64,000 bases of DNA from a virus. Its lineage: Duplodnaviria > Heunggongvirae > Uroviricota > Caudoviricetes. A program made the translations under genes and the position numbers. The stretch lies in the IMG/VR virus record IMGVR_UViG_3300016674_000066. The stretch is one strand, 5' to 3'. How positions within the stretch are numbered: the first letter of the stretch is position 1; every line of letters begins with the position of its first letter. The notes below the pieces were generated by a model. That model had not been told where the DNA came from. It worked only from the letters and a program-made list of their open reading frames with translations, and made no database searches. Below, one piece after another: positions 3 through 49,836 of this stretch.

Positions 3-3000
3 GAGCAGGCCCTGGCCCGCATCGAGACCGTGGCCGAGTGGATGGGCGTGAACCTGGGCGACATCGCCCAAGGCGTCTCTCAGCAGAGCAACGAGCAGGC
101 AGGCCCTCCGACTCGTCCCCAGCAGGTCGGCCAGATGATCACGTCCACGCCTGGCTTGAGTGGTCAGGAGCGCGACGAGGCGCTGCAGTCGATGATGGCT
201 TGGCGCAACACTCGCCTGCCCGCCCGCACCCGCCAGGCCGCACTGGATCGCGCCCTCGAGATCGTTGGTCGCACCCAGGCACCGCAAGGCAGGGCCAACC
301 CGGATCGCCAGCCCGCCGTGATGCGCGACATCGCGCCGCAAGAGGGCGCGCCGGAGTACTTCCTGCGTGAAGCTGAGCGCCGCGAGGATGGCGCCTACCA
401 GTTCCGCGCTCTTGGCTATGACGATGAGGCTGATGCTCTACTGCTTGAGGCCGACAGCCTGCGTGAAGCCGCCGCCTCCGCGCGCGCTGGCACGCTGAAT
501 GTGGAGGACTCCGCAGAAGCTGACGCAGATATTGCTTCGCAATCAAGAGCACTTTCTGTTGACGAGGCAAGCGGAAGTTTGCCCCGTGTGCAGATCCCGG
601 CATCAACCGATCAAGAAATCGGCGAGGCCAGCACCGCGCTGCGCCGCAAGCGCAAAGCCCAGATTGCTCAGATCGTCGGCAACGGCTTCGACACGGTCGA
701 GCGCTCCGGCGAAGGCTTTGTCCTGCGCAACACCAAGACCGGTCAGAGCGTGATGCTCGACGGCATGGCCGATGCGCAGATCGCCCGCAACGCCATCAAG
801 GCGCGCGTCGACGAGCTCGCCAACACCGCTGCGGCCAGTCCACTGAACGATCGCCTGGAGCCCACCGAGGCCCAGATCAAGGCTGGCAACTACAAGAAGT
901 CCGACGTCATCGAGCTCAACGGCGTCAAGGTGGTCATCGAGAACCCGCGCGGCAGCGTGCGTCGCGGCGTGGGTGCCGATGGCAAGCCGTGGGAGACCAA
1001 GATGGCCCACCACTACGGCGAGATCGTTGGCACCGAGGGTGCTGACGGCGACCGCGTGGATGTGTTCATCGGCGATCGCCCGGCCAGCAACAAGATCTTC
1101 GTCATCGACCAGGTCAACCAGGATGGCACCTTCGATGAGCACAAGCTCGTCTTCGGCGCCGTCAGCGAGGCTGATGCACGCCAGACCTACTTGGCCAACT
1201 ACGACAAGGGCTGGACCGGTCTGGGCGCCATCAAGGAACTCCCGCTTGCCGACCTGAAGACCTGGCTCAAGGATCACGCCAAGAAGCCCGCTGCAGAAAG
1301 CGGCATGGGTGCCATCCAGGTTCGCGTCAAAGGCAAGACCTACACCGTCAGCGCTGTGCCGGTTGAGAGCCTGCCCGCGAGCTCTGGCGACTCTCCGTCG
1401 CGCGGCGTCAAGGGCGCCCAAATCACCAAGCAGCAGGCCATCCTGCTCAAGGGCCTGGCTGGCTTCTTCGGCAAGGACATCGTGTTCTTCTCCGACCCGC
1501 AGTCGAAGGTCGACTCGGACGGCTTCGTCATTCCTGGTGATGATGTCACGATCTACCTCAACGAGCGCTCCGGCATCTCCCCTCTGGCTGTGTTTGGCCA
1601 TGAGCTGATGCACATCCTGCGCAGCGACAACCCGGCTGCCTACGACGCCATCGCCAAGGTGGTTGCCGAGCGCGTGCAAGACCCCAAAGGCTTCCGCGAG
1701 AACTACTACGGCAAGGACTCCGCTGAGGCCAAGAGCGACGCCGCCCTGAGCGACCGCGACCTCGAGGAGCTGATCAGTGACCTCAATGGCGACCTGATGA
1801 GCGACGGCGCCTTCTGGCGTGATGTCTTCGCGAAGATCCAAGATGACAACGGCGCGCAAGCCAAGAGCATCATCGCCAACCTGGCGGCGTTCTTCCAGAA
1901 GATACTGGACGGCGCCATCGCCGCGATCAAGGGTCAGCCCAGCTTCCGTGCCAGCCGCTTCATCAACGATGCCGAGGCTGTGCGCAATGCCTTCCGCGAC
2001 GGCATGGCCATGTACGCCCAGGGCGCTGGCATCAGCAAGGCCGCCATGCAGGCTGAACTGCTCAAGGCTCAGCAGAAGCTTGGCGACATCAAGCGCTCAG
2101 CTCCGCGCCCTGACGACGGCCTGACGGTCGATGGCTACCACTTCAGCAAGCAGGCGCGCCAGATCCTGTCGACAGGCTTCTTCGGCACCGGACTGCAGGG
2201 CAGTGACCGCGAAGAGATCATGTCGAACCCCGACATGCGTCTGCGCCAGCGCCTGTCCTTCTACGTCAACAAGGGCACCGGCATTCGCCCGGAGTCTGGC
2301 GTTGGCCCCATTGCCCACAAGGCAACGCTGACCAACATCTACGACGCTGACGCGGACGTCAAGCGCCTGAAGCAGGGCCGAGACAAGCGCGCCTTCGAGA
2401 CCGCCGTGATCAACGCCGGTTACTCGGGCTACCTCACGCGCCTCGATGGCAGTCAGCCTGGCCAGGTCATCCTGCTGGGTAGCCAGACCGTGAAGACCGA
2501 AGTCCTCGGCATGCGTACGCAGATCGATGACGCCAAGGTTGTGCCGGCCATGGCCAAGCGCGACGCTGACCTGGGCGACAAGTTTTCCGCCCTGAAGATC
2601 CCGCTAAACGGCCAGCTGATTCCGCAGCGCTGGGCCCAGATGGTGATGGCGCGCGACCCTGAGTTGGCCGCGCAGCTGATGGATATCGGCGCCTTCGAGG
2701 GCGACAAGCCGATGTATCAGGACGAGTTTGTCGCCATGGTGCGGCAGAAGGTCGGCGCACCAAAGAGGCCCTCTGGTCTGCAGGCCGCCGGGATCGTCTT
2801 TAAGGCCGCAGACACAGGCCGAATCCTGATGGCAAAGCGCGGATCATCTGTTGCCAACCCCGGCACATGGAGCATCCCGGGTGGCGCCGTCGATGCCGGC
2901 GAGTCGCTCGAGGCCGCCGCATTGCGTGAGGCCAAGGAGGAGATCGGTTTTCAGGGCCAGGTCAAGCTTGCCCGGATCGCCGAAGCCAAGTTCGGCAACG

Positions 3001-6000
3001 CAACGTTCAACACCTTCATCGCAACGGTTCCATCCGAGTTCTCTGTTCGCTTGAACGGGGAAAACTCAGAGGCGAAGTGGGTGGACCCGGACTCACTGCC
3101 GGACGGGCTGCACCCCGGATTTAGAGATGTCAAAGACCTGGTTGTTGGCGCCGCAAAATCCAAGAATCCGGCCGCATTGAGCCTGGATGGAAGCGAGATC
3201 AAGCGAAGCGCGCAGCGCGCCAAGGACGAGTACGCCGAAGTCGAGGCCAAGTACAAGGGCACCGACCAATGGCTCAAGGCGCCCAACGGCGGAAAGACGA
3301 ATCTGACCGAGCGCCAGTGGGTGCAGGTCCGCACTCCGGCCTTCAAGAAGTGGTTCGGTGACTGGGAGGCTGCGATCGCCAAGGGCGGCGTCTGGGCCGA
3401 CGACAGCACCTCCAAGGTTGTCGACGAGAACGGCGAGCCGCTGGTCGTCTATCACGGCACCGACAAGGGCGGCTTCATGGAGTTCGAGCAGCCCGGCGGC
3501 ACTGGCCGTGGCGACTTCGGGATCTTCACGACGCCCAACTGGGATATGGCGCGCAGCTACGTTCGCAAGAACCGCGCAAACGCAGTTGTCGACAGCGATA
3601 CCTCCGAGGCTGGCGACCAGCCCGGCATCTACGCCCTGTTCCTGAACATCCGCAACCCCAACGAGAGCGACTTCGAGGGTGCGACATGGAGCGGCGAGCG
3701 CTTCGGCCAGTACCAGGTTCTCGACGAGGACGGTGAGCCCATCTACGACGAGGCAGGCAACGGCTTCTTCGATTACGAGACGGCAGAAGAGCTGCTTGAG
3801 AAGAATCCCGGCTCCTACATTGAGCAGGCTGGCAGCCACTACGAAACTACCGACTCGGTGGTGAGAGAGGCCTGGCGCTATAAGAACGACGGCGCCATCG
3901 TGCGCAACGTAGTTGACGACGGCGGTGGCCCTGGCGCCTACGACATGACGCCGGCCGACATCTTTGTGGCCCTGTCACCCAACCAGCTCAAGTCCGCCGA
4001 CTTCAATGGTGGCGAGTTCAGCGCTGAGTCTGACGACATCCGCCGCAGCACGTCGCGCGAGTACAAGCTCGCCATCGACCGGGAGAGTCGCGTCAAGGCG
4101 AAGGTGGTTCGTTTGCTACCTGAAGAGATTTCGGCAATCGAGTCGGACGCGAAGAAGTTTGGCCTGTCGACCTCTCAGGTGAAGTCGGTGATGGATAGTG
4201 CCAAGGCAACAAAGCGGCAGTATCCGGCGTCTGAGGGTTGGGCCCAGATCTCAGTCATCGGCATCAACGTCAAGAAGGATGACAATGGCAACATTGTCCC
4301 GAACAGCGAAGAGCCGAAGTTCAAGGAGATCTCTTACGGCTTCAACGTTCCGCCCGGAAAGACCCGTGCGTCGCCAAAGCTGGATGCAGATCTGGCTGGC
4401 AAGGTTGCCAAGAAGTTTGAGCAGCTCATCCTGGACGTCTACGACCGAGCCGAGTCTGGCGACAAGAACGCCCAGATCATCGTTGGGCACCAGACCTGGT
4501 ATCGCAACGTGGCCGAGGTTCTGCGGCGCGAGTATGGCGCGGCCGGTGACATGTTGGCCGACCTGCTTGGTGCAACTTCCCCGAATACGCCAGTAGACAC
4601 CAACTGGAAGTTCTCTATCGACATCATGCGCCGCTTCATGCGGGGCGACTTTGATGAGCAGCTGGAGAAGTTCTCTGCCTTTGTTGAGCGCGGTGGCGAC
4701 CCGTCAAAGTATCCGGCCGCAGACAAGATCCGCCAGATCAGCGGCAAGCTGTATGGCATGAACTCCACCAACGCCATGAAGGCGCTGGTTGATATGTGGC
4801 GGCTGATTGAGCCGGGCCAGGCTCCGAAGGCGCGCAACTTTGCGTTGAACCTGATTGGCCAGTCGAACATGGCAACGATAGACGTGTGGGCTGCGCGGAT
4901 GCTTCGTCGCGCTGCCAACATGGTGAGAGGCGTCAGCCTGCCACGCATCCCTCCTGTTGCTGAGACCGGAGTGACTGGCGCCTGGAACGCGGACAGCACC
5001 AAGGTGACTGGCGAGTTTGGCTTTGGCGCTGAAGTCATGCAGATGGTCTCTGACTCGCTGGCCAAGAAGGGCGTCGTCGTATCCCCTCCAGATCTGCAGG
5101 CGATTGCGTGGTTTGCTGAGAAAGAGTTGTGGGGCCAGAAGGGATGGACCACAAAGACCGGCGAAGGCGGGTCGTTTGAGGAGAACATCGAGGCAACTCC
5201 GGTTGAGCGATACCTGGCCGGATGGAGCATCCAGCAAGGCGAAAAGCGCCCCGAGGATGGCAAGGCCACCGTGGCGCAGGCCCGCGTCATGTCCATGCTG
5301 GTTGGTGATGACACGGTGCTGGCTGCGCGCGTCATGCCGACTTACGGTCTGTACGGCGGCACCATCGAGGCATCGTTCGATACCGAGTGGACGGCGCAAA
5401 AGGGCAAGCATGACCCGACGCTGGTGATGGCCGAGATCGCCAAGCTGGCGCAGGAAAACAATCAGTGGGACATCTTTGTGTCCAGGGTTGTGCAACCGAA
5501 CGAGGAAAACAGAAACGCACGCCCAGGCGTTGAGATCTACTTCCGCGACCGCAAGTCTCTCGACCAGGCCATGCCCATCCTGGAGCGATTCACATCGCGC
5601 GGTCAGGATGGATTTACAATGGCCGTTGACCCACGAGCCAAGAAGAAAGGGCTGGAGGATCAGGAATTTATTGGGGTGAGGCTCCAGTACGTTCCCGAGA
5701 TCTCGATGCGCTGGGATGAGTCCTTGCGCGAAGAGATCATGAAGCCTGGTGCGATTGAGCAGATTCTCGATGAGAAGCGCCAGCTTCTTCACGAGATCGC
5801 TCGCGAGGTTAGGTCCATGGATGGCGTGGCTTTCGCCTCCATGCAGCAGTACGACACGGTTGTCGTCGGAAAGGAAAACTACGATGAGTACATTGATCGA
5901 GCAACTGAGGAAGGACGTCAGGGAGCTCGAACGCAAGCATGGTTCGGACGACCCGTACGTCAAGGACTTGAAAGAGCAGTTGCGCGCCTCAGAGGAGAAC

Positions 6001-7070
6001 GCGAGCAAGCCGGCCGAGGAGGTGTACAAGATGCAGGCGACGCAGTTCAAGCCAAACCTGCCCTCTCGGCCGACGCGCAAGCAATTCTCGACGCAAGCGG
6101 AGTACGAAGAAGCCCTGGCCGGGTGGCAGAGCAGGGTCGGTCGGATCAAAGCTCTGGGCGCGAAAAAGACGGGAGCCTGAATGGCCTGCCGCGCGACTTC
6201 ACTGTCGCCGGCATCGACATCCGCGCCAGCCACTGGGCACCAGCCGAAGCTGTAGCGCGTCAGTACATGGAGCGCGCCGGTCTCGAGTACCGGCCTCCAG
6301 CCAAGTACGCCAAGGTCGACAAGGAGCGTGCCGCGCGCATCGCTGCCGAGTACGACCGCATGAAGCACGATCCGAAGAATCCTGTGGTCAAGGCTGCCTA
6401 TAAGGCCCTGACCAAGGAAACGATCGAGCAGTACCGCGCCGTCGTCGAGTCTGGGCTGCAGGTCGAGTTCATCGACTTCGCCTCCCAGGGCGACCCGTAT
6501 GCCGCCAGCCCGCGCCTCATGACCGAGGACGTGCGCAACAACAACCACATGTGGGTGTTCAGCACGCGCGACGGCTTCGGCACCGACGCATCCTTCGACC
6601 CTGAGGACAACCCGCTCCTGGCGGAAACCGAGTTCGAGATCAGCGGTCAGAAGGCCCTGGTCAACGACCTGTTCCGCGTGGTGCATGACTACTTCGGTCA
6701 CGTCAAGGAGGGCGTCGGCTTCCGCGCTGATGGGGAGGAGAACACCTGGCGCGCCCACAGCTCTATGTTCAGCCCGCTGGCTCAGCGCGCGCTGACCACC
6801 GAGACGCGCGGCCAGAACAGCTGGGTGAACTTCGGGCCCCATGGCGACAAGAACCGCACGGCATCTGCTGGCGAGACGCACTTCGCTGACCAGAAGACTG
6901 GCTTGCTGCCGCTGTGGGTGAGCGAGGACGGGCGCTACGACGAAGATGCCTCGGCTCAGCCTGACGACATGACGATCCGCATTGGCGAAGAGACTCAGAA
7001 ATCAGACGCCGACGAATACAATCAGCGGATCGCGGCACTCGAAGAGTTGATCGCCTGCCTCAACAAGTAA
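3..7070 (+). CDS. Giant multidomain 'polyvalent' virion/effector protein. It is 5'-partial: frame 0 is open from the window edge. Domains: inorganic-pyrophosphatase-like, HExxH zincin, Nudix, PARP-like ART, and a C-terminal module starting at 6181
   Basis: Frame 0 is open from nt 3 with high GC3. Motifs: ENPRGS...HHYGEI...DGDRVDVFIGD (PPase-like, about nt 930-1110); FGHELMHIL (HExxH, about nt 1600); GGAVDAGESLEAAALREAKEEIGF (Nudix box, about nt 2880-2950); VVYHGT...GDFGIFTTP...NPNESDF (H-Y-E ART-like, about nt 3440-3680). Confidence 0.75.
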   Translation, partial: EQALARIETVAEWMGVNLGDIAQGVSQQSNEQAGPPTRPQQVGQMITSTPGLSGQERDEALQSMMAWRNTRLPARTRQAALDRALEIVGRTQAPQGRANPDRQPAVMRDIAPQEGAPEYFLREAERREDGAYQFRALGYDDEADALLLEADSLREAAASARAGTLNVEDSAEADADIASQSRALSVDEASGSLPRVQIPASTDQEIGEASTALRRKRKAQIAQIVGNGFDTVERSGEGFVLRNTKTGQSVMLDGMADAQIARNAIKARVDELANTAAASPLNDRLEPTEAQIKAGNYKKSDVIELNGVKVVIENPRGSVRRGVGADGKPWETKMAHHYGEIVGTEGADGDRVDVFIGDRPASNKIFVIDQVNQDGTFDEHKLVFGAVSEADARQTYLANYDKGWTGLGAIKELPLADLKTWLKDHAKKPAAESGMGAIQVRVKGKTYTVSAVPVESLPASSGDSPSRGVKGAQITKQQAILLKGLAGFFGKDIVFFSDPQSKVDSDGFVIPGDDVTIYLNERSGISPLAVFGHELMHILRSDNPAAYDAIAKVVAERVQDPKGFRENYYGKDSAEAKSDAALSDRDLEELISDLNGDLMSDGAFWRDVFAKIQDDNGAQAKSIIANLAAFFQKILDGAIAAIKGQPSFRASRFINDAEAVRNAFRDGMAMYAQGAGISKAAMQAELLKAQQKLGDIKRSAPRPDDGLTVDGYHFSKQARQILSTGFFGTGLQGSDREEIMSNPDMRLRQRLSFYVNKGTGIRPESGVGPIAHKATLTNIYDADADVKRLKQGRDKRAFETAVINAGYSGYLTRLDGSQPGQVILLGSQTVKTEVLGMRTQIDDAKVVPAMAKRDADLGDKFSALKIPLNGQLIPQRWAQMVMARDPELAAQLMDIGAFEGDKPMYQDEFVAMVRQKVGAPKRPSGLQAAGIVFKAADTGRILMAKRGSSVANPGTWSIPGGAVDAGESLEAAALREAKEEIGFQGQVKLARIAEAKFGNATFNTFIATVPSEFSVRLNGENSEAKWVDPDSLPDGLHPGFRDVKDLVVGAAKSKNPAALSLDGSEIKRSAQRAKDEYAEVEAKYKGTDQWLKAPNGGKTNLTERQWVQVRTPAFKKWFGDWEAAIAKGGVWADDSTSKVVDENGEPLVVYHGTDKGGFMEFEQPGGTGRGDFGIFTTPNWDMARSYVRKNRANAVVDSDTSEAGDQPGIYALFLNIRNPNESDFEGATWSGERFGQYQVLDEDGEPIYDEAGNGFFDYETAEELLEKNPGSYIEQAGSHYETTDSVVREAWRYKNDGAIVRNVVDDGGGPGAYDMTPADIFVALSPNQLKSADFNGGEFSAESDDIRRSTSREYKLAIDRESRVKAKVVRLLPEEISAIESDAKKFGLSTSQVKSVMDSAKATKRQYPASEGWAQISVIGINVKKDDNGNIVPNSEEPKFKEISYGFNVPPGKTRASPKLDADLAGKVAKKFEQLILDVYDRAESGDKNAQIIVGHQTWYRNVAEVLRREYGAAGDMLADLLGATSPNTPVDTNWKFSIDIMRRFMRGDFDEQLEKFSAFVERGGDPSKYPAADKIRQISGKLYGMNSTNAMKALVDMWRLIEPGQAPKARNFALNLIGQSNMATIDVWAARMLRRAANMVRGVSLPRIPPVAETGVTGAWNADSTKVTGEFGFGAEVMQMVSDSLAKKGVVVSPPDLQAIAWFAEKELWGQKGWTTKTGEGGSFEENIEATPVERYLAGWSIQQGEKRPEDGKATVAQARVMSMLVGDDTVLAARVMPTYGLYGGTIEASFDTEWTAQKGKHDPTLVMAEIAKLAQENNQWDIFVSRVVQPNEENRNARPGVEIYFRDRKSLDQAMPILERFTSRGQDGFTMAVDPRAKKKGLEDQEFIGVRLQYVPEISMRWDESLREEIMKPGAIEQILDEKRQLLHEIAREVRSMDGVAFASMQQYDTVVVGKENYDEYIDRATEEGRQGARTQAWFGRPVRQGLERAVARLRGEREQAGRGGVQDAGDAVQAKPALSADAQAILDASGVRRSPGRVAEQGRSDQSSGREKDGSLNGLPRDFTVAGIDIRASHWAPAEAVARQYMERAGLEYRPPAKYAKVDKERAARIAAEYDRMKHDPKNPVVKAAYKALTKETIEQYRAVVESGLQVEFIDFASQGDPYAASPRLMTEDVRNNNHMWVFSTRDGFGTDASFDPEDNPLLAETEFEISGQKALVNDLFRVVHDYFGHVKEGVGFRADGEENTWRAHSSMFSPLAQRALTTETRGQNSWVNFGPHGDKNRTASAGETHFADQKTGLLPLWVSEDGRYDEDASAQPDDMTIRIGEETQKSDADEYNQRIAALEELIACLNK
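5884..6180 (+). CDS. Embedded small ORF in the +1 frame (98 aa, K/E-rich coiled-coil-like protein, MSTLIEQLRKDVRELERK...) lying inside the giant ORF
   Basis: High GC3 and a realistic amino-acid composition in frame +1. Over the same span frame 0 has AT-rich third codon positions and an R/G/A-rich low-complexity translation. RBS: GGAAAGGAAAActacgATG. Confidence 0.4.
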   Translation: MSTLIEQLRKDVRELERKHGSDDPYVKDLKEQLRASEENASKPAEEVYKMQATQFKPNLPSRPTRKQFSTQAEYEEALAGWQSRVGRIKALGAKKTGA

Positions 7071-7082
7071 CGGAGAAGCCAG

Positions 7083-10000
7083 ATGGCGCAATTGATGTCG
7101 ACCTCGTGCCTGAAGTTGGTCGCAAAAATCAACGAGAGAGACCAGGATGCGCTGCTCTCTCGCCTCGACGAGCTCCAGGCCCAGGGCATGCCGGCGCAGC
7201 GCGCCCAGATCCAGGCCGCCATCGATGTGCTCTCTGGCCTTCGCCGCGAGGCTGCAAACGCCTCGTCCATCCCCGAGGACCAGGACATCAACCCGGACCA
7301 GCCCGACATCAAGCGCAGCGCTGCCCGAGTCATCCCTGACTTCGTTGAAGAGAACATCGAGGACACGGAGTACCCGGGCTCGAAGTATGCGGAGTTCGAT
7401 GACGGAGCCGCGTACGTGAAGTTCTTTGCGGACAACAAGGGGGATCTGCGTGTCACGACGCTGAATACCGAGGGCTCAGATAAGGTGCGCGGGCGAGATG
7501 TGTTGCGCTGGCTTGGGCAGACGTACGGTCGCCCGATCCTGGTCAACGAGGTCGACCCTCCTGCGTCTGGCTTCTGGGACAAGATGCAGGATGAAGGCAT
7601 CATCAAGGACTGGTCCAGGGATGCGTATCGAGGCAAGACGTCTAGCTTGCCGGATACCGACATCAAGCGCAGCACCGGCAGAAGCGAGGAAGAGATCGCA
7701 GCCGCCAGGGCTGATGGCTGGACCATCGCCGACAACGACCTGCCGTCGCGAGAGGCTGCAGAGCGCATCGTCAAGCTTCGCACCAAGGGCAACAGCGTCG
7801 TCAAGCCGATGGCCGCCTGGCAAGGCGCTGAGGTGCGCGTTGTCGAGAGCGACAACCCCGGGTTCTGGGCGATCGAGGCTCGCCGACCCGACGCAAAGCG
7901 CAGCGCCGCGCGCGACATCACCCGCAGCCGCAAGCGCCAGCCATCTGAGATTTTCGGCCGAGAGATCGCGCCAGCTGCAATCCGCGCATACAAGTCACTC
8001 TCCGCTGGCGCCAAGTCGATCGTCGACGGCTGGAACGTCAACTGGTCCATGGGCCAGGGCAGGCTGCGCAACAGCAAGGACTTTGATGAGGTGGTCAAGG
8101 CCTATGAGCCGGTGCGCGAGAAGCTGCGCCAGGTGTACGGCAGCACCGTGCCGGCATTCCGAGGCGAGAAGCAGGACGGCACCGAAAGCACGGACGATCG
8201 ATTCCTGTTCTCATGGACGCCGATGCGCGACATTGCAGCCGGCTTCGCCGTCAACCGCCGCTACGGCATGCCGGCCGAGATCCCGCAGTCTAAGGTCGAC
8301 GAGCAGATCGAGGCGTACAGTAAGACGGGCATCGCCCGCCTGAATGGCTACAAGTTCGTCCGCAAAGATCCGGGCGACTACGAGCCCGACGGCCCGGACT
8401 ACTACTACATCTACCAGGGCGGCGAGATGATCACCGACGGTGACGACATCGCCCGGGCTCTGCAGCAGGAGAAGGATGAGCGCGACGCATGGATCGGCGA
8501 GTTGCGTGATGGCGGCAAGCTCTACGCCGGCAACATACCGGTTGACTCAGTGGCATTCATCCCTGTTGGCGCCAACCTGCGCCAGCCCGAGTTCGTTGCC
8601 GAGTACAACCCCCGCAAGGACGCGGCTGGCGAGATCCGCCTAAGCACCAAGCGCAACGAGCTCGGCTTCCATTCTGCTCTCGAGCGTGGCATCGAAGACA
8701 TGCAGACCAAGTCTGCTCTTGCCGGTGCCTGGAAGGCCCAGATCAAAGGCTTGGTCAACAAAGGTGCCGTGAAGCAAGACGAGGTCACCTGGTCCGGCAT
8801 TGAAGACTGGCTCGACATCCAGGATGGCAAGGTCACCAAGGATGCAATCGCCGAGTACCTGAAGCAGGGCGGCGTGCAGGTGGAGGAGGTGACGCTGGGC
8901 GCCGTGGAGACTGGGCCCCAGCTCGATGCCTGGCTCGAGAAGTGGTCAGAGGAAAACGATGGTGAAACCGCCAACGCCATCTACAACGGCCAGGCCTGGA
9001 GCTATATCCAGCGCATTGCAAAGCAAGAAGGCCACCAGGATGTTGTTGACCGCATCGAGGCTAAGGTCAGTGGTGCGGAGCCCAAGTACGGCCAGTACAC
9101 CCTGCCTGGCGGCGAGAACTACCGTGAGGTGCTGCTGACGCTGCCGCCGATTGGCGGTGTGAGGTACACCGAAGAGAACGTCATTGCCATCGACGACTCC
9201 GATGACCCGAAGCGGTCGCAATACTTTTGGCGCTTCAAAGTTCCTGGCAACGAGCTGCAGATCTCCAAGCAGGTCTACCGCACCCAAGAGGAGGCAAAGG
9301 CTTACATCCTGAAGGAGAAGCAGCCAGAACCGCCAGCAGACAAGAACTACCGCTCCAGCCACTGGGATCAGCGCAACATCCTCGCTCACATCCGCGTCAA
9401 CGACCGCGCCGATGCCGACGGCAAGCGCGTTCTGTTCGTCGAGGAGCTGCAGAGTGACTGGGGGCAGGAGGGCAAGAAGAAAGGGTTTGCAGACAAAAGT
9501 GTGAGCATGGCTGAACTGGCCAAGCAGTTCGACGAACTCAACCGAGAGCGCCGCACCCTTGAGCAGCAGATTGCGGAAGGCGACGACGCTGACCAGGCAA
9601 CTCAAGCGGCTGTTGAAAGGTCGGTTGATGTCAACCGCCAGATGGTTGCACTGTCTGACCGCATGGCCGCACTTCGCTCCGGCGTCCCCACCGCACCCTT
9701 TGTGACCAAGACCGAAGGCTGGCTCAACCTCGCCCTCAAGCGCGTCATCGCCATGGCGGTGGATGGCGGCTACGACGCAGTCGCCTTCGTCAATGGCGAC
9801 CAGTCGGCTGATCGGTATGACCTGAGCAAGCACGTCGATGAGTTGATGATAGAAAGGGATGGAGACAGCTTCAAGATTTCCATGAAGCCCATCGGCGGTT
9901 ACTACGGGGACGGCGGGCGCTGGAGCGGAAAGGTGCAAGAGCTACCAGACGTCTTGGGCAAAGAGCTTGCGGACAAGGTCGCAGCGCAGCCGGAAGGTCG

Positions 10001-13000
10001 GTCCTACATAAACGGTGTTGACCTCAAGGTAGGCGGCGAAGGCATGAAGGCCTTCTACGACAAGATCGTACCCAACGCTGTGAAAGCCCTGCTGAAGAAG
10101 GTGGGCGGAGAGCAGCTCGAGAAAGTCGGCATCCCAGACTCCAATGCTGGCCGCGAGGTTGTTGCAGCCAAGGTGCCGGGCGAAAATATGTGGGGCGTCT
10201 ACGATCGCCAGAAGGGTCAGTGGCTCGAGAGCTGGGACCGCGAGACCTACACATCTGACCCCGAGAATGCGGAGCTGACAAGCGAGAAAACGGCAAAGAG
10301 TATCGCTTCCGCGATCATGCGAGATGCCGGCGTTCTTCTGGAGCAACCCGGCTTCACCATCACCGACGCCATGCGCGAGAAGGTGGCAACCGAAGGCCTG
10401 CCGCTGTTCAGCCGCAAGCGCGACGTCACCGAGACGCCGGAGTTCCAGGCGTGGTTCGGTGACTCCAAGGTGGTGGACGCCGATGGCAAGCCGATGGTGG
10501 TGTATCACGGGACCGGCAAAGACTTCAGCGCATTCGGCGGCGGTTTTTCACCGGACCACGGGAGCGACGTTCACTTCTTCACCCCTGACCCGGATGTGGC
10601 GAATGGCTTTACCCCAGCAAGCGGCAATGGATCGGTAATTTATCCGGTCTATCTGTCGCTGCAAAATCCTGCTGAGCTTGATTTCTTTGGTGAGGACTAC
10701 GACGGAGAAGCCGTCAATGACGCGATAGACGAGGCGATCGCTGCTGGAAACGATGGCCTAATCATCACGAACATCAATGACGTGAAGGCATCGGAAATGC
10801 AGTACATCGCCTTCCGCCCAGAGCAGATCAAGAGCGCCATCGGCAACCGTGGCACCTTTGACCCAAGCGACGCAGACATCCGCCGCTCCACTGGCCGCAC
10901 CTTCACTGGTGCCGACTGGGACTCGCCCAGCGCCTCGAAGTTTGACGACCTGGTCTACAAATTCCAGGACAAGCTGATCGACACCAAGCGCGTGGTCGAG
11001 GCTATCAAGGACACGTCAGGCGCCATTGCTGACGACCTCGATGTCTACCTCCAGGAGGAGCTGTACCACGGCCGCGCCGCCAAGCGCACCGAGGACTTCG
11101 TGAACATGGAGCTCAACCCGCTGGTCGAGCAGCTGACCAAGGACGGCCTGAAGTTGGAAGACCTCGAGGAGTTCCTGCACGCCCGCCATGCGCCCGAGGC
11201 CAACAAGGTCATTGCCCAGCGCAACCCGGGCGTGGCAGGCCTCCAGGATGGCGGCTCCGGCATGAAGACGTCGGACGCCCTGGACTACATGACCACGTTG
11301 CCGGCAGACCTGAAAGCCAAGCTCGAGGCGGCAGCAGCCAAGGTCGACGACATCATCGCTCAGACCCGCAAGCTGTACGTCGACTACGAGCTCGAGAGCC
11401 AGGAGACGGTGGACGCCTGGGGCAAGATGTTCCAGCACTACATCCCGCTGCAGCGCGAAGACAAGGATGGCAGCGGCAGCCCGGGCCTGGGTCAAGGCTT
11501 CAGCGTCAAGGGCAAGGAGACCAAGGGCCGCACCGGTTCAACCCGCAAGGTGGTCGACATCCTGGCCAACATCGCCATGCAGCGCGAGAAGGCGATCGTG
11601 CGCGGCGAAAAGAACCGCGTGTCTCAGGCCCTGGTTGGCCTGGCCAGTGCCAATCCCAATGAGGGCTTCTGGACCGTCGACGAGGTGCCCACCGAGCGCG
11701 TGTACGACGAGCGCCTGGGTGTTGTGGTGGATCGCCCTGACCCGATGTGGAAGGCGCGCGAGAACACCATGGTTGCCAAGATCGTGGGGCCTGACGGCAA
11801 GGTCAAGGAGCACGCCGTCGTCTTCAATGAGGAGGACGAGCGAGCCATGCGGATGGCCAAGTCCCTGAAGAACCTGGACGCCACCCAGCTCGAGGGCCTA
11901 CTCGGCGTTAGCGCCAAGATCAGCCGCTACTTCGCCGCCATCAACACCCAGTACAACCCGGTGTTCGGCGTGGTCAACCTAGTGCGCGACGTCCAGGGCG
12001 CCGTGCTCAACCTGTCCTCCACTCCACTCGAGAACGACCGAGCCAAGATCGCCAAGGACACAGCATCCGCGCTGCGTGGCATCTATGGCGACGCCCGCGC
12101 CGCACGCAAGGGCAAGAACCCGTCGTCGGCCTGGGCGCAGCTCTGGGATGAGTTCCAGGAAGTCGGTGGACAGACCGGCTACCGCGACCTGTTCAGGACC
12201 AGTGCCGAGCGCGCGGAAGCCATCAAGAAGACGCTGAACCCGGATGCCTGGGCCGACAGCAAGCTTGGAAAGATCTTCACCGCCAACGGCGCACTGAAGG
12301 TGCCCATGGCCCAGGCCAAGCGCGGTGCCGGCTGGATCTTCGACTGGCTGAGCGACTACAACCTGGCCATGGAAAACGGCGTGCGCCTGGCGGCCTACAA
12401 GGCTGGTCTGGAGCGCGGGATGTCCAAGGAGCAGGCAGCATCGGTCGCCAAGAACCTGACGGTAAACTTCAACCGCAAGGGCCAGGTGAGCCAGCAGGCC
12501 GGCGCCATGTACGCCTTCTTCAACGCCTCGGTGCAGGGCACGGCGCGCATCGCCCAGACCATCTTCACCATGGAGCCTGGCAAGCCCAAGACCATCCGCC
12601 TGAGCCCCTTCGGCAAGAAGGTGGTGTACGGCGGCATGCTGGTTGGCTCCGTCCAGGCTCTGGCCCTGGCGGCTGCCGGCTTCGGCGACGAAGACCCGCC
12701 GCAGTTCGCCCGCGAGCGCAGCCTGATCATCCCGCTGATGAACGGCAAGTACATGACCATCCCGATGCCGCTGGGCTTCCACGTCATCCCCAACATCGGG
12801 CGCATCACCACCGAGTTCGTGTTGAGCGGATTCAGCAAGCCGCACGAGCGCGCACTGCAGCTGTTCGGGCTGTTCGCCGACACGTTCAACCCGATCGGCA
12901 ACGCCGGCATGTCCATGCAGACCCTGGCCCCCACGGCGCTTGACCCGCTGGTGGCGCTGACCGAGAACCGCGACTGGACCGGCAAGCCGATCGCCCGCGA

Positions 13001-13604
13001 GTCGATGAACCCAGCCACCCCTGGCCACGCCACGGCGCGCGACACGGCAACCGCCCTGTCCAAGTTCCTGGCCGAGGCCATCAACACGGCGTCCGGCGGC
13101 AACCAGTACGTGGCAGGCGTCTTCTCGCCCAGCCCGGACCAGATCGACTACCTGATTGGCCAGATCACCGGCGGCGTAGGTCGCGAGCTCTCGAAGGTTG
13201 AACAGTCATCCCTGGCCGCGCTGCGTGGCGAGGAGCTGCCCACCTTCAAGATCCCGCTGGTGGGTCGCTTCGTTGGCGATGCCAAGCAGCAGGCCAGCGA
13301 GGGCTCAGCGTTCTACGCCAACACCGAGCGCATCAACAAGGTGGAGACGGAGATCAAGGGCCTGCAGAAGGACGGCAAGTACGCCGAGGCGGCCGAGCTG
13401 CGCCGCACCAACAGTGACGCCTACCTGATCGCCGTGGCCAACCAGGCCGAGCGCCAGATCCAGAAGCTGCGTTCTGAGAAGCGAGAGCTGATCAAGAACA
13501 ATGCGCCGCGCGAGCAGGTGCGCGCCGTCGAGGAGCGCATCACCGCAGTGATGGCCCGTCTGAACCGTGCCGCCGAGAGACTAAGGGAGCAGCAGGGCAA
13601 CTGA
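7083..13604 (+). CDS. Second giant polyvalent protein (2173 aa) with repeated DIKRS(A/T)xR linkers, a PARP-like ART domain and a C-terminal coiled coil
   Basis: Uninterrupted ORF with high GC3. The motif VVYHGTGKDF...VHFFTPDPD...NPAELDF (about nt 10490-10690) is a paralog of the ART-like domain in the first giant protein. The D-I/A-K/R-R-S motif occurs four times. Confidence 0.75.
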   Translation: MAQLMSTSCLKLVAKINERDQDALLSRLDELQAQGMPAQRAQIQAAIDVLSGLRREAANASSIPEDQDINPDQPDIKRSAARVIPDFVEENIEDTEYPGSKYAEFDDGAAYVKFFADNKGDLRVTTLNTEGSDKVRGRDVLRWLGQTYGRPILVNEVDPPASGFWDKMQDEGIIKDWSRDAYRGKTSSLPDTDIKRSTGRSEEEIAAARADGWTIADNDLPSREAAERIVKLRTKGNSVVKPMAAWQGAEVRVVESDNPGFWAIEARRPDAKRSAARDITRSRKRQPSEIFGREIAPAAIRAYKSLSAGAKSIVDGWNVNWSMGQGRLRNSKDFDEVVKAYEPVREKLRQVYGSTVPAFRGEKQDGTESTDDRFLFSWTPMRDIAAGFAVNRRYGMPAEIPQSKVDEQIEAYSKTGIARLNGYKFVRKDPGDYEPDGPDYYYIYQGGEMITDGDDIARALQQEKDERDAWIGELRDGGKLYAGNIPVDSVAFIPVGANLRQPEFVAEYNPRKDAAGEIRLSTKRNELGFHSALERGIEDMQTKSALAGAWKAQIKGLVNKGAVKQDEVTWSGIEDWLDIQDGKVTKDAIAEYLKQGGVQVEEVTLGAVETGPQLDAWLEKWSEENDGETANAIYNGQAWSYIQRIAKQEGHQDVVDRIEAKVSGAEPKYGQYTLPGGENYREVLLTLPPIGGVRYTEENVIAIDDSDDPKRSQYFWRFKVPGNELQISKQVYRTQEEAKAYILKEKQPEPPADKNYRSSHWDQRNILAHIRVNDRADADGKRVLFVEELQSDWGQEGKKKGFADKSVSMAELAKQFDELNRERRTLEQQIAEGDDADQATQAAVERSVDVNRQMVALSDRMAALRSGVPTAPFVTKTEGWLNLALKRVIAMAVDGGYDAVAFVNGDQSADRYDLSKHVDELMIERDGDSFKISMKPIGGYYGDGGRWSGKVQELPDVLGKELADKVAAQPEGRSYINGVDLKVGGEGMKAFYDKIVPNAVKALLKKVGGEQLEKVGIPDSNAGREVVAAKVPGENMWGVYDRQKGQWLESWDRETYTSDPENAELTSEKTAKSIASAIMRDAGVLLEQPGFTITDAMREKVATEGLPLFSRKRDVTETPEFQAWFGDSKVVDADGKPMVVYHGTGKDFSAFGGGFSPDHGSDVHFFTPDPDVANGFTPASGNGSVIYPVYLSLQNPAELDFFGEDYDGEAVNDAIDEAIAAGNDGLIITNINDVKASEMQYIAFRPEQIKSAIGNRGTFDPSDADIRRSTGRTFTGADWDSPSASKFDDLVYKFQDKLIDTKRVVEAIKDTSGAIADDLDVYLQEELYHGRAAKRTEDFVNMELNPLVEQLTKDGLKLEDLEEFLHARHAPEANKVIAQRNPGVAGLQDGGSGMKTSDALDYMTTLPADLKAKLEAAAAKVDDIIAQTRKLYVDYELESQETVDAWGKMFQHYIPLQREDKDGSGSPGLGQGFSVKGKETKGRTGSTRKVVDILANIAMQREKAIVRGEKNRVSQALVGLASANPNEGFWTVDEVPTERVYDERLGVVVDRPDPMWKARENTMVAKIVGPDGKVKEHAVVFNEEDERAMRMAKSLKNLDATQLEGLLGVSAKISRYFAAINTQYNPVFGVVNLVRDVQGAVLNLSSTPLENDRAKIAKDTASALRGIYGDARAARKGKNPSSAWAQLWDEFQEVGGQTGYRDLFRTSAERAEAIKKTLNPDAWADSKLGKIFTANGALKVPMAQAKRGAGWIFDWLSDYNLAMENGVRLAAYKAGLERGMSKEQAASVAKNLTVNFNRKGQVSQQAGAMYAFFNASVQGTARIAQTIFTMEPGKPKTIRLSPFGKKVVYGGMLVGSVQALALAAAGFGDEDPPQFARERSLIIPLMNGKYMTIPMPLGFHVIPNIGRITTEFVLSGFSKPHERALQLFGLFADTFNPIGNAGMSMQTLAPTALDPLVALTENRDWTGKPIARESMNPATPGHATARDTATALSKFLAEAINTASGGNQYVAGVFSPSPDQIDYLIGQITGGVGRELSKVEQSSLAALRGEELPTFKIPLVGRFVGDAKQQASEGSAFYANTERINKVETEIKGLQKDGKYAEAAELRRTNSDAYLIAVANQAERQIQKLRSEKRELIKNNAPREQVRAVEERITAVMARLNRAAERLREQQGN

Positions 13605-23842: not shown

Positions 23843-24118
23843 TCAAATTTTTTTTGCGGTCAGTTCAAACATCTCGACGGACCTGCGGCCACGGGTGTCG
23901 CAAGCCTTCTCGTTGCACACGCGCACTGCGCCGGTCTTGGCCATGGATGAGGTCAGCTTGCTGACAGTGGAGGGGTGCAGGCCTGTGACCTGGGCGATGT
24001 CAGACCTGGAGAATGGGCCGCGCACCATCCTGGCCAGCGCGTGGGCAAAGGTGATGTGGGTGACTCGTGCTGGTCTTTGCTTTGACATGGCGTAATTGTA
24101 TGACAAAGCGTTATACAT
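23843..24118 (-). CDS. HTH DNA-binding protein; candidate repressor or regulator (the start may be the internal MSKQRP)
   Basis: Helix-turn-helix SRSDIAQVTGLHPSTVSKL. Confidence 0.55.
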   Translation of the reverse strand: MYNALSYNYAMSKQRPARVTHITFAHALARMVRGPFSRSDIAQVTGLHPSTVSKLTSSMAKTGAVRVCNEKACDTRGRRSVEMFELTAKKI

Positions 24119-24130
24119 GGAACAGAAAGT

Positions 24131-24207
24131 TGGAGCGCCCGGAAGGATTTGAATCCTCGACCTGGTGACTAGAATTCACTTGCTCTATCCAGCTGAGCTA
24201 CGGGCGC
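24131..24207 (-). tRNA. tRNA-Arg (anticodon TCT)
   Basis: Cloverleaf read by hand. Acceptor stem GCGCCCG/CGGGCGC is perfect; D-arm is GCTCAGCTGGATAGAGC; anticodon loop is ATTCTAG; CCA is encoded. The T-stem has one mismatch. Confidence 0.65.
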
Positions 24208-25830
24208 ATGTTGACGGTGGCCGGTGCTGATCTCCGGCTTAGCGAAATCAGATCAAGTCAACCAAGACAACTTGCTTGGCAACCCATCGCCACAGAACTT
24301 TGCGCATCAGCCTGCGCATTCACCATCACATCAGCGGGCCGGGCTTGATACCGACTCAGGAAGTCATCGAGCGTGGCCGCCGATCACAAAGTCACGACGG
24401 TTGGGCCTCCTGCCTCACGGCTTGGCGTGTCCTTCCACGCTGCCGCTGGTGTGATGGTGCCGGTTACGCGATCCGGCGACAACGTGCCGATCAGTCGCCT
24501 GTGTGCGTGGCGACCGCTCGACCGTGACCGTTTTCAGACCCAGCGCTCCTACGCACAGGAGAGGGGCTGGATCGTAGAAAGTTTGCCGGTTACGTATCGT
24601 CCGGCACCGGGGCAAGGACGGCGAACCCCGATCGTTGACACATCTGCGTGCCGTCAAGCTGATGGTGCCAGTCGCACTGCCAGGCCATTGGGCAACTCGA
24701 AAGCCACCCGCACAACCGCATCGGTCCCGCAGCAAATGCTGTACGCGGACTGGAACTCCGTCAGGCTTTCGCCTTCACCATCAAGTGTGACGACTGACTC
24801 AGACCGATGGGCGGCTGTGGCTAAGCACCCATCATGCATAGCATCAATCGTCACGCTTGATGGCCCGTTACTCACGGCACATCAAGGATGTCTTTCCATC
24901 AGTCAGAACCTGTTGGCCGGTGTTCACCGCACTCTAACGATATGGCGTTTTCGCATTGCCCGCCCAGGACCGGTCGCCTGTCGAGTGACACCCTTCGTGG
25001 ACATTTATAGACCGTCTTGAAGGATGAAGTCATCCAGTCTTTTCTGTCTGGCAAGGGCGATAGGACTCGAACCTATGACCCCAGGGATCAAAACCCCGTG
25101 CTCTACCAACTGAGCTACACCCCACCATCAAGTGACGACCGCCCTACTATGCCGAGGGCCCCGGCGGAGCGATCCCAGCGTTTCAACACGATCGTCGCTT
25201 GATGGCCCTATCGAAGCAGGATCACCAAGGAGAGTTTTTCAATCCTCTCTGCCCCAGATGCTTGGGCCTTACCGCCGTGCTCGCCCGCTTTCAGATTCAT
25301 CGTCTTCGGTACTTTGCGCGCCGAGGCGCCGCTTACCTACTGGCTTCACCTTACTTGCTTGACAGTCCGCACTCTTTGATACGCCAGGCCGGAATCGAAC
25401 CGACTCATCGCCACCGGTATGACGACGTGCTCCAACACACTCCAGGCGCGGGCCGCAGCGGTATCCAGCCACTGCGGCTTGATCAGTCATCATGAAGCCT
25501 CACCGGCCCGCTGCATCCCGACTTACCCTCGTCCGTCGAGACCGGGCATTCCCGGTTACTTCGCGTTAGGGGTGCCGGATCGGCTTCATCATGACTGACT
25601 CAAGTCTTCGTGCTCACAGGCCGTGGATACCACTGGCCACCTCAGCTCGCACGGAGAATGACCCGTGCCAATTGCGTTTGCAACCGCAGCCTCGGAGGTG
25701 AACACGAAGGCTTGATGGCCCGATAACGGGGGCCAGTCGGCTAAGTCAGTGTGTTGACCGCTTCAGCTCGCGGCAGGAGTCCGGGCCACTACGCCCCCGC
25801 ACACACCACACGGTATGAACCATGGGTGCG
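24208..25830. ncRNA. Leader of about 1.6 kb with no coding potential, containing repeated structured RNA-like modules and tRNAs
   Basis: No ORF with plausible codon usage. Recurrent motifs include GCTTGATGGCCC (3 copies) and CACCATCAAGTG (2 copies), and there are long-range helices with compensatory changes. Confidence 0.4.
25049..25124 (-). tRNA. tRNA-Gln (anticodon TTG) with a U1·U72 terminal mismatch
   Basis: D-arm GCTCAGTTGGTAGAGC; anticodon loop TTTTGAT; perfect T-arm ATAGG-TTCGAGT-CCTAT; CCA encoded. The acceptor stem forms 6 of 7 pairs, including 2 G·U. Confidence 0.55.
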
Positions 25831-25831
25831 A

Positions 25832-25859
25832 GTATACACACATTTTTTGCTACACCAAC
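25832..25859 (-). promoter_or_regulatory. Leftward sigma70-like promoter (P_L-like): TTGGTG-N16-TATACT
   Basis: Hexamers read on the minus strand; the operator palindrome CCAACATTTTGTTG overlaps the -35 element. Confidence 0.4.
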
Positions 25860-25984
25860 ATTTTGTTGAGTAAATGTTGTGCTGCGGCCACACCAAGAAC
25901 CGGGGTCTGACAGAGAGACCCGGAGCCGGTTGCCAAGCTCGCCTCAATGAGGCGCTCAAGAAAGATTGCCACACAAAAAAAGTG

Positions 25985-26014
25985 TTGGCAAGGCAACAAA
26001 AAGATATGTAGAAT
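25985..26014 (+). promoter_or_regulatory. Rightward sigma70-like promoter (P_R-like): TTGGCA-N18-TAGAAT
   Basis: Hexamers and spacing read directly. The half-sites AAAAAGTGTTGGC and GCAACAAAAAG flank and overlap the -35 element. Confidence 0.45.
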
Positions 26015-26085
26015 CAGCGCAGTGCAGGCGGATACTAGCATGCACGTACGTGGTTCTGTGACCACTATCACCGAAGGAGTAGCAG

Positions 26086-26451
26086 TTGAATACCCATCAA
26101 ACCAGCGCATCGCCCGCGCCGGAAACCATCTTCCGCGTCCGCGCCTCAGACCCAGTGACGAGCGTCATGGCTGCAGAGTCTGCCGAGATGTTCGCCGGCA
26201 AGCACAAGGACCGCATCCGGCTCGCCTTGACAAAGCTCAAGTCCGCAACGGCGCACGACATTGCCAGGGTCACCGGCCTGACTGTCGTGCAGGTTGACCG
26301 ACGCCTGCCAGAGCTCAAGCGCGATGGCGTCGCAGATGTTGTCGAGGCATCGCCTGGCGTTGATCTTCTGAGGGATGGGTTCCGTGTGTGGGCCCTGAAA
26401 AAAATTTCGACCGAAGAGCAACAGGAAGTTGCCGAGGCAACAGGAGTTTGA
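26086..26451 (+). CDS. Winged-HTH protein (TTG start); the first gene of the rightward operon
   Basis: RBS GAAGGAG; HTH HDIARVTGLTVVQVDRRL. Confidence 0.5.
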   Translation: MNTHQTSASPAPETIFRVRASDPVTSVMAAESAEMFAGKHKDRIRLALTKLKSATAHDIARVTGLTVVQVDRRLPELKRDGVADVVEASPGVDLLRDGFRVWALKKISTEEQQEVAEATGV

Positions 26452-26454
26452 CTG

Positions 26455-48475: not shown

Positions 48476-48718
48476 ATGCAACAACAAGTTCACGCAGGCC
48501 ACAAGGCCACGGGCCGCACCGGCGGCGCCCTGCAGCGCAAGATCATCGCGGCCGAGGTCAAGCTGCTGTCCGTTCCCCTGGCAGACCGTGACGAGGACTG
48601 GGCGGCCACCATCGGTGGTGTGCGCCACGCCAACGACCTGCTCTCCCAGGGGCGCCGCGCCAAGGCTGGAAAGGTTCTCGCAAACGCAATCAAGGCAGCA
48701 GAGGGGGCGAAGTCATGA
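48476..48718 (+). CDS. Hypothetical protein (80 aa)
   Basis: ORF track. Confidence 0.4.
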   Translation: MQQQVHAGHKATGRTGGALQRKIIAAEVKLLSVPLADRDEDWAATIGGVRHANDLLSQGRRAKAGKVLANAIKAAEGAKS

Positions 48719-49119
48719 TCGACCTCAGCAACATCAAGGTCGGCGACAAGCTGGCTCTGCGCGAAAAGAGCAGCGGATGGGGCTACTACTCCATCTCTCA
48801 CCGCATCCTCGTCGTTGATCGCATTACCGCCACCCAGGTTTTGTGCGTCAACGAACAAGGCGGCAGTGGTGAGTGGCGCTTCCGCAAGTCCGACGGCAAG
48901 GAGATTGGCGAGAACTACTCGCACGCAGAGCTTGCGACCGACGAGCTGCTTTCATCCGTCAATGAGCAGCGCAGCCGTCTTGCGCGACACCTTGCCGCCC
49001 GCCGGAAGCTCAACGACCTGGAAGGCAAGCACCTGCATCAGCTTGACCTGACCCTGGAGCAGACCGAGGCGCTGGCCAATGCCTGGCTGGAGGTCAAGGC
49101 TATGGGGGCAAAGCTGTGA
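48715..49119 (+). CDS. Hypothetical protein (134 aa)
   Basis: ATGA-type overlap. Confidence 0.45.
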   Translation: MIDLSNIKVGDKLALREKSSGWGYYSISHRILVVDRITATQVLCVNEQGGSGEWRFRKSDGKEIGENYSHAELATDELLSSVNEQRSRLARHLAARRKLNDLEGKHLHQLDLTLEQTEALANAWLEVKAMGAKL

Positions 49120-49230: not shown

Positions 49231-49256
49231 TTGACACAACAGGCACTGTGTATAAT
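49231..49256 (+). promoter_or_regulatory. Putative late promoter (TTGACA...TATAAT, but with a spacer of only 14 nt)
   Basis: The hexamers are exact; the short spacer suggests the promoter is activator-dependent or that the hexamers are misidentified. Confidence 0.35.
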
Positions 49257-49601
49257 TCGCGCACGCCAGCGCATCGTTCGTGATCGCAGGTGAATTCAAA
49301 ATTGCCGGGCCTGGCGACCAGTGATGGTTGCGCTCGCCCAAAAGATTTCGGTTCGCCAAGACCGGTTGGTGTTGCAAGCACCGCCCGTCCATCCCAGCGA
49401 CGCAAAAGGCTGGGGCCATCACATCAGCGGCAGACAGCCCGGAGTGCGGTTACGGGGCATGAAAGTGCGGTAGCCGTTCTGCTGCTGGTGTGATGGTCAA
49501 GCACAGCGAGCCTCTCTGTCTCGCAATCAGGAGGTGTGCAGGGTTGGGGGCGCCCGGCCGCCATCATCTTATTGGGTTCAGTAGGCAAGCACCAGCCCTT
49601 T

Positions 49602-49823: not shown

Positions 49824-49836
49824 TCTGGAGGCAAGC

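Follow-up and report, generated by a model that had tools for sequence, protein, structure and literature searches.

The DNA considered here is a 64,000-nt stretch (hereafter, the window) of the virus record IMGVR_UViG_3300016674_000066 (Caudoviricetes). It is a phage-like genome of high GC content (~61%), in which Pfam scans of the open reading frames (ORFs) revealed RdgC, SSB, YqaJ, RecT, a DnaC-like loader, Rha/ANT, thymidylate synthase, and lysozyme, as well as terminase-like and portal-like ORFs. Approximately 1.9 kb without coding signal are flanked by a leftward helix-turn-helix gene (23843-24118, minus strand) and by rightward genes starting at ~26455; no ORF in 24119-26454 passes the GC3 test (GC at third codon positions), which the flanking genes do pass. 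This stretch carries tRNA-Arg, tRNA-Gln, and a dubious tRNA, all on the minus strand, together with two modules, A and B, each closed by a long helix, to which an earlier note on this DNA had drawn attention. Here, we show that A and B are members of a family of long RNA hairpins, so far uncatalogued, which lie between tRNAs and tRNA-like elements on the tRNA strand.

Two helix-closed modules in a phage tRNA array

The units of the array are listed below in minus-strand order; L022, which is syntenic with the window, and L268 are contigs bearing relatives of this phage.

25831-25860, minus: probable array promoter (TGTTGG...TATACT), from reading the sequence
25599-25721, minus: third module, M3 (GGGCCAUCAAGC-CUUCGUG...CACGAAG-A-CUUGAG), with the same boundary motif and the same C·A position
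25483-25598, minus: long hairpin I1, with 25-nt arms and 66 nt enclosed (inverted-repeat search and fold)
25380-25449, minus: tRNA-like element with a canonical T arm (GGUUCGAUUCC), the 'tRNA-???' of ARAGORN, with a 4-nt anticodon
25206-25230, minus: hairpin (CUUGGUGAUCCU...AUAGGG) abutting the CCA of module B, kept in L022 and L268
25122-25208, minus: module B, arms 25192-25205 and 25125-25138
25049-25124, minus: tRNA-Gln(UUG), from the tRNA calls
24865-24886, minus: CCGU-gagua-ACGG, a short hairpin that a single unpaired G separates from the CCA of module A
24776-24866, minus: module A, arms 24848-24863 and 24778-24793, with a stem of ~21 bp and C·A at helix position 9
24321-24459, minus: inverted repeat I3 (CACCAUCACACCAGCGG / CCGCUGAUGUGAUGGUG), also with C·A (inverted-repeat search)
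24212-24327, minus: tRNA-like element of a second, widespread type (TLE), 4 nt before tRNA-Arg, discriminator A
24131-24207, minus: tRNA-Arg(UCU), the final unit, with no terminator before the helix-turn-helix gene at 23843-24118

The candidate promoter was not reported by a consensus promoter scan; the same arrangement is seen in L022 and L268. The tRNA-like element at 25380-25449 is kept at 75 to 86% in the same two contigs and is therefore probably a functional tRNA-like RNA rather than noise.

Both modules are present with the sequences that the earlier note had quoted, and an inverted-repeat search returns both helices, as I2 and I4. The note had placed the arms at 24778-24793, 24850-24865, 25129-25142, and 25187-25200, of which the first is exact and the other three are 2 to 5 nt off. 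On the plus strand, the arms of A are CCATCAAGTGTGACGA (24778-24793) and TCGTCACGCTTGATGG (24848-24863) and those of B are CCATCAAGTGACGA (25125-25138) and TCGTCGCTTGATGG (25192-25205). Read as RNA, module A is GGG-CCAUCAAG-C-GUGACGAUUGAU...GUCAGUCGUCAC-A-CUUGAUGG-UG. The enclosed part measures 54 nt in A and 53 nt in B, not the 60 to 70 nt supposed earlier, and it does differ between the copies: the interior of A resembles those of L022b (L022 482-568; module A is 81% identical to it) and L268, and the interior of B resembles that of the L047 module, a different subfamily. A compensatory 2-bp indel is a fair description of A versus B, but an ungapped alignment of the ends also keeps every pair; since it does so, and the two interiors belong to different subfamilies, the indel is one possible history and not a demonstrated one.

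In the minus-strand sense, module A folds at -49.5 kcal/mol (z, -6.8) and module B at -47.6 kcal/mol (z, -5.1), with the minimum-free-energy (MFE) structure of B making up 70% of the ensemble; for neither of these 87- to 91-nt modules was any of 200 dinucleotide shuffles as good. The predicted stems contain 21 pairs in A and 21 in B, with one mismatch each. Plus-strand folds reach -43.3 kcal/mol for A and -35.3 kcal/mol for B (z, -5.7 and -4.0). Closing-pair probabilities are 0.995 to 0.999 in contexts of 131 to 361 nt (0.996 to 0.999 for A). When the whole 1.7-kb minus-strand RNA is folded, A, B, M3, and I1 remain long hairpins, and the acceptor stem of the downstream TLE forms in place of I3. 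An alternative hairpin, in which an upstream CUUGRUG (CUUGAUG at A) pairs with CAUCAAG, was rejected as the native fold (P < 0.001 for A and B); it may form co-transcriptionally.

Covariation and the functional strand

Homologs were sought with pattern (regular expression) scans that included pairing filters for a continued helix, and ~30 modules were recovered overall. Two scans of viral contigs found true homologs in ~17 uncultured high-GC phage contigs. A scan of genome contigs gave 46 matches, about the number expected by chance, all but one of which were conserved Burkholderiales or Achromobacter coding sequence; the remaining one added L268, on a contig binned as a Saccharibacteria metagenome-assembled genome, a binning that is probably wrong. 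A metagenome scan added 9 modules, with 98 of its 107 unique matches being coding-type chance hits.

In an alignment of 18 modules, the eight pairs at the helix base, CCAUCAAG/CUUGAUGG, are invariant except for one U-A for C-G double change, and the next ~12 pairs vary freely on both sides. Pairing holds at 91% in the 20-bp closing helix, and both sides change at 13 pairs. Covariation scores 0.59, compared with 0.15 in shuffles (0/500), and all measures collapse when the partners are slid. This free covariation supports selection on structure, which the earlier note had proposed and for which it had recommended just such a comparison of homologs; selection on the helix in a single-stranded nucleic acid is well supported.

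The functional strand was addressed with modules oriented by their flanking bases (GGG upstream, UG downstream), independently of the pairs. At the eleven helix positions past position 9, the tRNA-sense RNA has 224 Watson-Crick pairs, 33 G·U, and 5 A·C; other counts of G·U versus A·C gave 27 versus 4 and, in the metagenome set, 10 versus 2. The tRNA-sense RNA is the more stable one in most copies, the plus strand being weaker by 6 to 12 kcal/mol for A and B. The L268 array runs from a TATACT promoter through a Rho-independent terminator in the tRNA sense, and in L067 a terminator follows the array in the same sense. A second unit of the window, at 49231-49825, likewise has its promoter and terminator in the sense of its tRNA, and the widespread tRNA-like element associated with the modules (see below) shares the strand of tRNAs 19:1. 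A consensus scan found no plus-strand promoter in the array. The functional strand of the modules is therefore the tRNA strand (minus for A and B), contrary to the suggestion that it is antisense to the tRNAs. The T·G pair on which that suggestion was built is real at the ninth plus-strand pair of both copies; in RNA from the functional strand it is a C·A mismatch, and it is not a conserved pair. Among 26 oriented modules, position 9 is C·A in 11, U-A in 6, C-G in 2, C·C in 2, and U·G, U·U, G·U, A-U, and A·C once each, counts that are biased because the first viral-contig scan required the T..G combination (the second allowed Y/R only, and the metagenome scan left the position free). Position 9, non-Watson-Crick in 17 of the 26 modules, is a variable, mismatch-rich weak point nine pairs from the helix base, with no conserved wobble.

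Relatives of the array add to this picture. On the reverse complement of L268, an operon of 1.8 kb (~5570-7400), with its promoter at ~5570 and its terminator at ~7390, contains only hairpin modules, tRNA-Gln, and several tRNA-like elements with canonical T loops. M3 is 78% identical to L268m (6456-6572), which sits after tRNA-Gln in L268. M3 and A are placed differently in the window and in L268 and L022, with breakpoints at module ends, so that modules are rearranged as cassettes among these three. The module loci lie in unrelated phage backgrounds, and no neighbouring protein common to them was found among 19 loci; any partner is therefore likely a host factor. The absence of Rsr, RtcB, and RNase genes among the scanned ORFs of the window points in the same direction.

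Module boundaries and a widespread tRNA-like element

A hairpin of at least 4 bp ends 0 to 2 nt before the CCA of the module in 19/26 modules, compared with 137/520 control positions (26%), and it usually ends exactly one G ahead of CCA. In L115, a genuine tRNA-Arg(UCU) replaces this hairpin, and the module begins with the discriminator G and encoded CCA of that tRNA. At the other side, the 3' arm of module B stops 3 nt ahead of the first base of tRNA-Gln, as does its counterpart in L268. The L004 module overlaps the acceptor strand of a tRNA-Ala (first five bases), the 3' trailer of which repeats CCAUCAA. Several modules continue into UGAAUGCGCAGGCUGAUGCGC, i.e., a tRNA-like element whose acceptor strand GAUGGUG overlaps CUUGAUGG; such an overlap of 3' arm and acceptor strand is found in the window at 24321-24337, where the 3' arm of I3 meets the 5' acceptor strand of the TLE, and also in L128, L067, L047, L030, and L004. 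Thus, each module fills exactly the stretch between one tRNA-type 3' end and the following tRNA-type 5' end, and its closing helix is a trailer-leader pairing.

The TLE was found because the conserved 3' flank of the modules is its 5' part. It has a 7-bp acceptor stem (GAUGGUG/CACCGUC) followed by AA, a D-like hairpin (GCGC-AGGCUGAU-GCGC), a variable arm, and a T-like hairpin (GCCGG-AGAUCAGCA-CCGGC) with a loop complementary to the D-like loop; its discriminator is usually A. Among 87 distinct copies, 28 different 5' strands of the acceptor stem occur with matching 3' strands, and position 7 is G-C in 86/87. All four copies that were tested fold as a cloverleaf, and 19 of 20 are co-oriented with nearby tRNAs. 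Near-unchanged TLE blocks were detected in 208 phage records and in 1106/5426 E. coli genomes, the carriers including P1, HK633, D3, and many Klebsiella and Pseudomonas phages. We found no name for the element in Rfam or in the literature searched. Further copies lie at the following positions.

L140, 1499-1613: TLE
L142, 1539-1671 and 1968-2067: TLE, two copies
L143, 1800-1890: TLE
L144, 1498-1602: TLE

The TLE lies upstream of tRNA-Ser/Arg/Met in Klebsiella phage KP591P1, within a tRNA cluster in Pseudomonas phage D3, between PR'/qut and the holin gene in HK633, and, in P1, in the leader of the C1-controlled ban operon, beneath the opposite-strand coding sequences plp and upl. In enterobacterial phages, TLE copies and long hairpins alternate, the hairpins being closed by CACAAC(A)GG/CCGUUGUG, a helix base that again resembles the local acceptor 3' strand plus trailer. 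In its 'variable' arm, GAGGAUACGCG..GGCAACGUU is common to a Klebsiella phage and D3 (L140 1520-1560, L144 1520-1560), and part of the arm is therefore conserved across distant hosts. As a separate observation, plp and upl overlie a conserved hairpin/TLE array downstream of trnA/trnT in the ban-operon leader (L311 3473-4042, corresponding to P1 69472-70041; L142 1450-2350), and they may not be genes.

Possible roles of the modules

With moderate confidence, we propose that A and B are structured spacer cassettes of a phage operon of ~1.7 kb that encodes tRNAs and noncoding RNAs, with their stems acting as a processing or stability signal. The minus-strand operon (~25830 to 24131) would string tRNAs, tRNA-like elements, and hairpins together ahead of early leftward genes. 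The 5' arm of a module starts at a tRNA-type 3' end consisting of a short hairpin, an unpaired base, and CCA, and its 3' arm reaches or overlaps the 5' end of the tRNA or tRNA-like element that follows. Each irregular stem of 20 to 25 bp, with its weak point at position 9, thus joins the trailer of one unit to the leader of the next, and this stem would serve as the signal. RNase III-type double-strand cleavage, together with RNase P and 3' exonucleases, would free the tRNAs, the tRNA-like RNAs, and hairpin RNAs of ~80 nt, which may persist as stable RNAs. The hairpins would in this way probably mark the cut sites of a long transcript, and the conserved boundary would let related phages exchange cassettes.

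Several known systems offer parallels. RNase III acts on rRNA operon transcripts (16S/23S) and on T7 early RNA at stems of at least ~20 bp that flanking sequences form. The predicted module duplex likewise amounts to about two helical turns formed from flanking sequences of a polycistronic RNA, and it shares with those stems the long irregular duplex with an internal mismatch or loop and a common sequence repeated along the transcript. It differs from them in enclosing 50 to 60 nt of variable RNA rather than a functional RNA and in having tRNA-type ends. The T4 tRNA cluster encodes species I and II (rnaC, rnaD), structured non-tRNA RNAs of ~120 to 140 nt cut from a shared tRNA precursor, of which species I is an in vitro RNase III substrate. 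Like the modules, they are structured RNAs co-transcribed with phage tRNAs, but they have no repeated boundary helix and no exchangeable cassettes, and neither a sequence nor a family relationship is expected. In the tRNA-miRNA transcripts (TMERs) of MHV68, hairpins adjoin tRNAs, and tRNA punctuation is also found in mitochondrial transcripts and MALAT1-mascRNA. There, as would be the case here, tRNA-like structures recruit tRNA-processing enzymes to set the ends of neighbouring RNAs; those systems, however, are eukaryotic or organellar, whereas the modules are from bacterial phages. We know of no bacterial-phage version with hairpin-N-CCA mini-ends. By analogy, the modules appear to be kin to the structured RNAs co-processed with phage tRNAs.

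A number of points weigh against the processing-stem proposal. A plain processing stem needs neither a strongly conserved 8-nt base sequence nor conserved interiors (81% between A and L022b), and the richness of position 9 in mismatches finds no explanation in it. The conserved interiors suggest that the hairpins have a function of their own, and together with the invariant base and position 9 they hint at a recognised RNA that is not purely passive. Many modules can also pair alternatively, with the upstream CUUGRUG or the downstream acceptor strand, so that folds other than the one favoured at equilibrium may matter as well. Moreover, the first two scans were biased to the search motif, and the less biased metagenome sample is small (9 real modules).

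It is tempting to speculate further, and here only tentatively, that the hairpin modules and the TLE belong together in a single modular RNA system, widespread among temperate and other phages and not yet described. Mimics of tRNA ends would punctuate a long transcript into cassettes, which would be swapped at boundary helices and have functions of their own, e.g., as decoys for RNases or RNA-directed defences of the host. Variants of it would be found in the leader of the P1 ban operon, the late leader of HK633, the tRNA cluster of D3, and many Klebsiella and Pseudomonas phages. Rfam searches at gathering and permissive E-values, covering the window region and two annotated phage loci, returned nothing beyond tRNAs. 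Literature searches by exact conserved-block sequence found nothing, and those by keyword found no description, only a general catalogue of viral structured-RNA candidates without accessible sequences. That no earlier description came to light is weak evidence, and the case for novelty rests on it. Annotation usually treats a phage tRNA cluster as a list of tRNAs, with the intervening DNA passed over or given small hypothetical genes, such as P1 plp and upl. If the spacers do prove to be covarying, conserved cassettes of RNA that end like tRNAs, current RNA databases lack a whole class of phage-borne structured RNAs that bring their own processing grammar. Such a class would raise the questions of which partners bind the hairpins and the TLE, whether they counter tRNA- or RNA-directed defences, and how modularity at the RNA level drives phage recombination, for which P1, HK633, and Klebsiella phages are tractable systems.

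A more doubtful explanation, compatible with structured spacers rather than opposed to them, holds that the modules are stand-alone small RNAs, such as decoys, mimics of double-stranded RNA, or RNAs that bind proteins in the manner of Y RNAs or VA RNA. The tRNA-like ends would be there for excision only, and a protein would recognise the conserved helix base and its weak point. The conservation of interiors across phages (A versus L022b and also M3 versus L268) fits this idea, as do the invariance of the 8-nt base while the remainder of the helix covaries, the frequent mismatch at position 9, the existence of discrete operons made solely of such RNAs (L268), and a ProQ-C-like ORF beside a second array in the window. 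It is opposed by the lack of a protein partner conserved near the loci, by the absence of TROVE/Rsr domains and RtcB from the window (Pfam scans of ORFs of at least 90 aa up to 53.6 kb), by the lack of an Rfam match, and by the lack of convincing antisense targets in the window, where matches to module interiors are ≤13 nt and near chance.

The Y RNA YrlA was considered as a relative. It resembles the modules in its long terminal stem, conserved 5'-strand motif, imperfection, tRNA mimicry, and occurrence in phages (PMC4201824), and the enterobacterial-phage counterparts of the modules enclose a T-arm-like hairpin. Modules A and B differ in containing neither a T nor a D arm. The 5'-strand motif of the YrlA terminal stem is GNCGAAN0-1G (PMC4201824), and that of the modules is CCAUCAAG(C/U) (CCAUCAAGC). 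The only match to RF02553 had 17.7 bits (threshold, 69; E, 2.2) and lay at 24159-24326 on tRNA-Arg, not on A or B. As for tRNAs, neither ARAGORN nor Rfam RF00005 called A or B, the only calls being tRNA-Arg, tRNA-Gln, tRNA-Asn, and the dubious 'tRNA-???'. The C4/CI/CA RNAs of P1, P4, and N15 are structured RNAs of ~80 nt that RNase P cuts from the early-operon leader of these temperate phages. They, too, are small structured RNAs in phage operons; copy number and boundary motif differ, and no complementary target sites were found for the modules in the window. The Rfam model of C4 antisense RNA found nothing in 24050-26100 (E up to 10) or in L140 and L141 (E up to 1).

We think it improbable that the modules are conformational switches, in which two partners would compete for the 3' arm CUUGAUGG: the 5' arm and, through GAUGGUG, the 3' acceptor strand of a downstream TLE. 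A module would in this way gate maturation of the neighbouring tRNA-like RNA. The overlaps of arm and acceptor strand described above invite this idea, and the same design recurs with other sequences in enterobacterial phages (CACAAC.../...GUUGUGGUG). However, A and B overlap no downstream acceptor stem that needs the arm, tRNA-Gln beginning 3 nt later, the equilibrium probability of the closing helix exceeds 0.99, and the overlap could be a by-product of tandem units sharing acceptor sequences.

A DNA-level recombination or transposition site, either MITE-like inverted repeats or an attC-like single-stranded DNA hairpin of the minus strand, is very unlikely. Such a site would account for the conserved terminal 8-mers and the rearrangement of cassettes at boundaries, the presence of the elements in unrelated phage backgrounds would fit it, and single-stranded DNA hairpins tolerate G·T too, so that strand asymmetry alone does not prove RNA. 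But free covariation of the inner stem is not expected of protein-bound repeats or MITE ends, and the modules are always co-oriented with tRNAs, promoters, and terminators. The dimer-binding site and the MITE that the earlier note had offered as alternatives leave both the covariation and the strand asymmetry unexplained. There is no target-site duplication, the flanks being GGG... and ...UG(AA), and no transposase or integrase was found nearby in the scanned ORFs. The ends CCATCAAG / CTTGATGG do not match RYYYAAC / GTTRRRY of integron attC sites, and a GTTRRRY-type core is lacking.

A plus-strand RNA antisense to the tRNAs, with a conserved G·U wobble, is hardly credible: the ninth plus-strand pair is T·G in A, B, M3, and I3, and the plus-strand folds are significant too, but those folds are weaker, other members have U-A, C-G, C·C, or U·U at position 9, and the G·U/A·C counts, the lack of a plus-strand promoter, and the terminators of relatives all favour the other strand.

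Further features of the window

A second, separate unit of this kind lies elsewhere in the window, with all of its parts co-oriented.

49231-49825, plus: second unit of noncoding RNA and tRNA, with a TTGACA-17-TATAAT promoter, a module, tRNA-Asn, and a terminator
49416-49496, plus: module of the second unit (GGGG-CCAUCACAUCAGCGG.../...GCUGGUGUGAUGG; CCAUCACA...UGUGAUGG)
49630-49705, plus: tRNA-Asn
~49800-49825, plus: terminator

Immediately upstream of this unit lies an ORF (48715-49119) with a match of 30.5 bits to PF24203, the phage ProQ C-terminal-like domain. The 11-mer CCGCACTCCGG, complementary to the apical part of the module at 49416-49496, occurs at three sites in the window (3329, 39015, and 46831, plus strand), which is above expectation for one 11-mer. 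At the start of the window, two giant adjacent polyvalent-protein ORFs (30-7070 and 7083-13604, plus strand) encode 2346 and 2173 aa, with domains that include InPase, NUDIX, ART-PolyVal, DUF7178, and LPD38.

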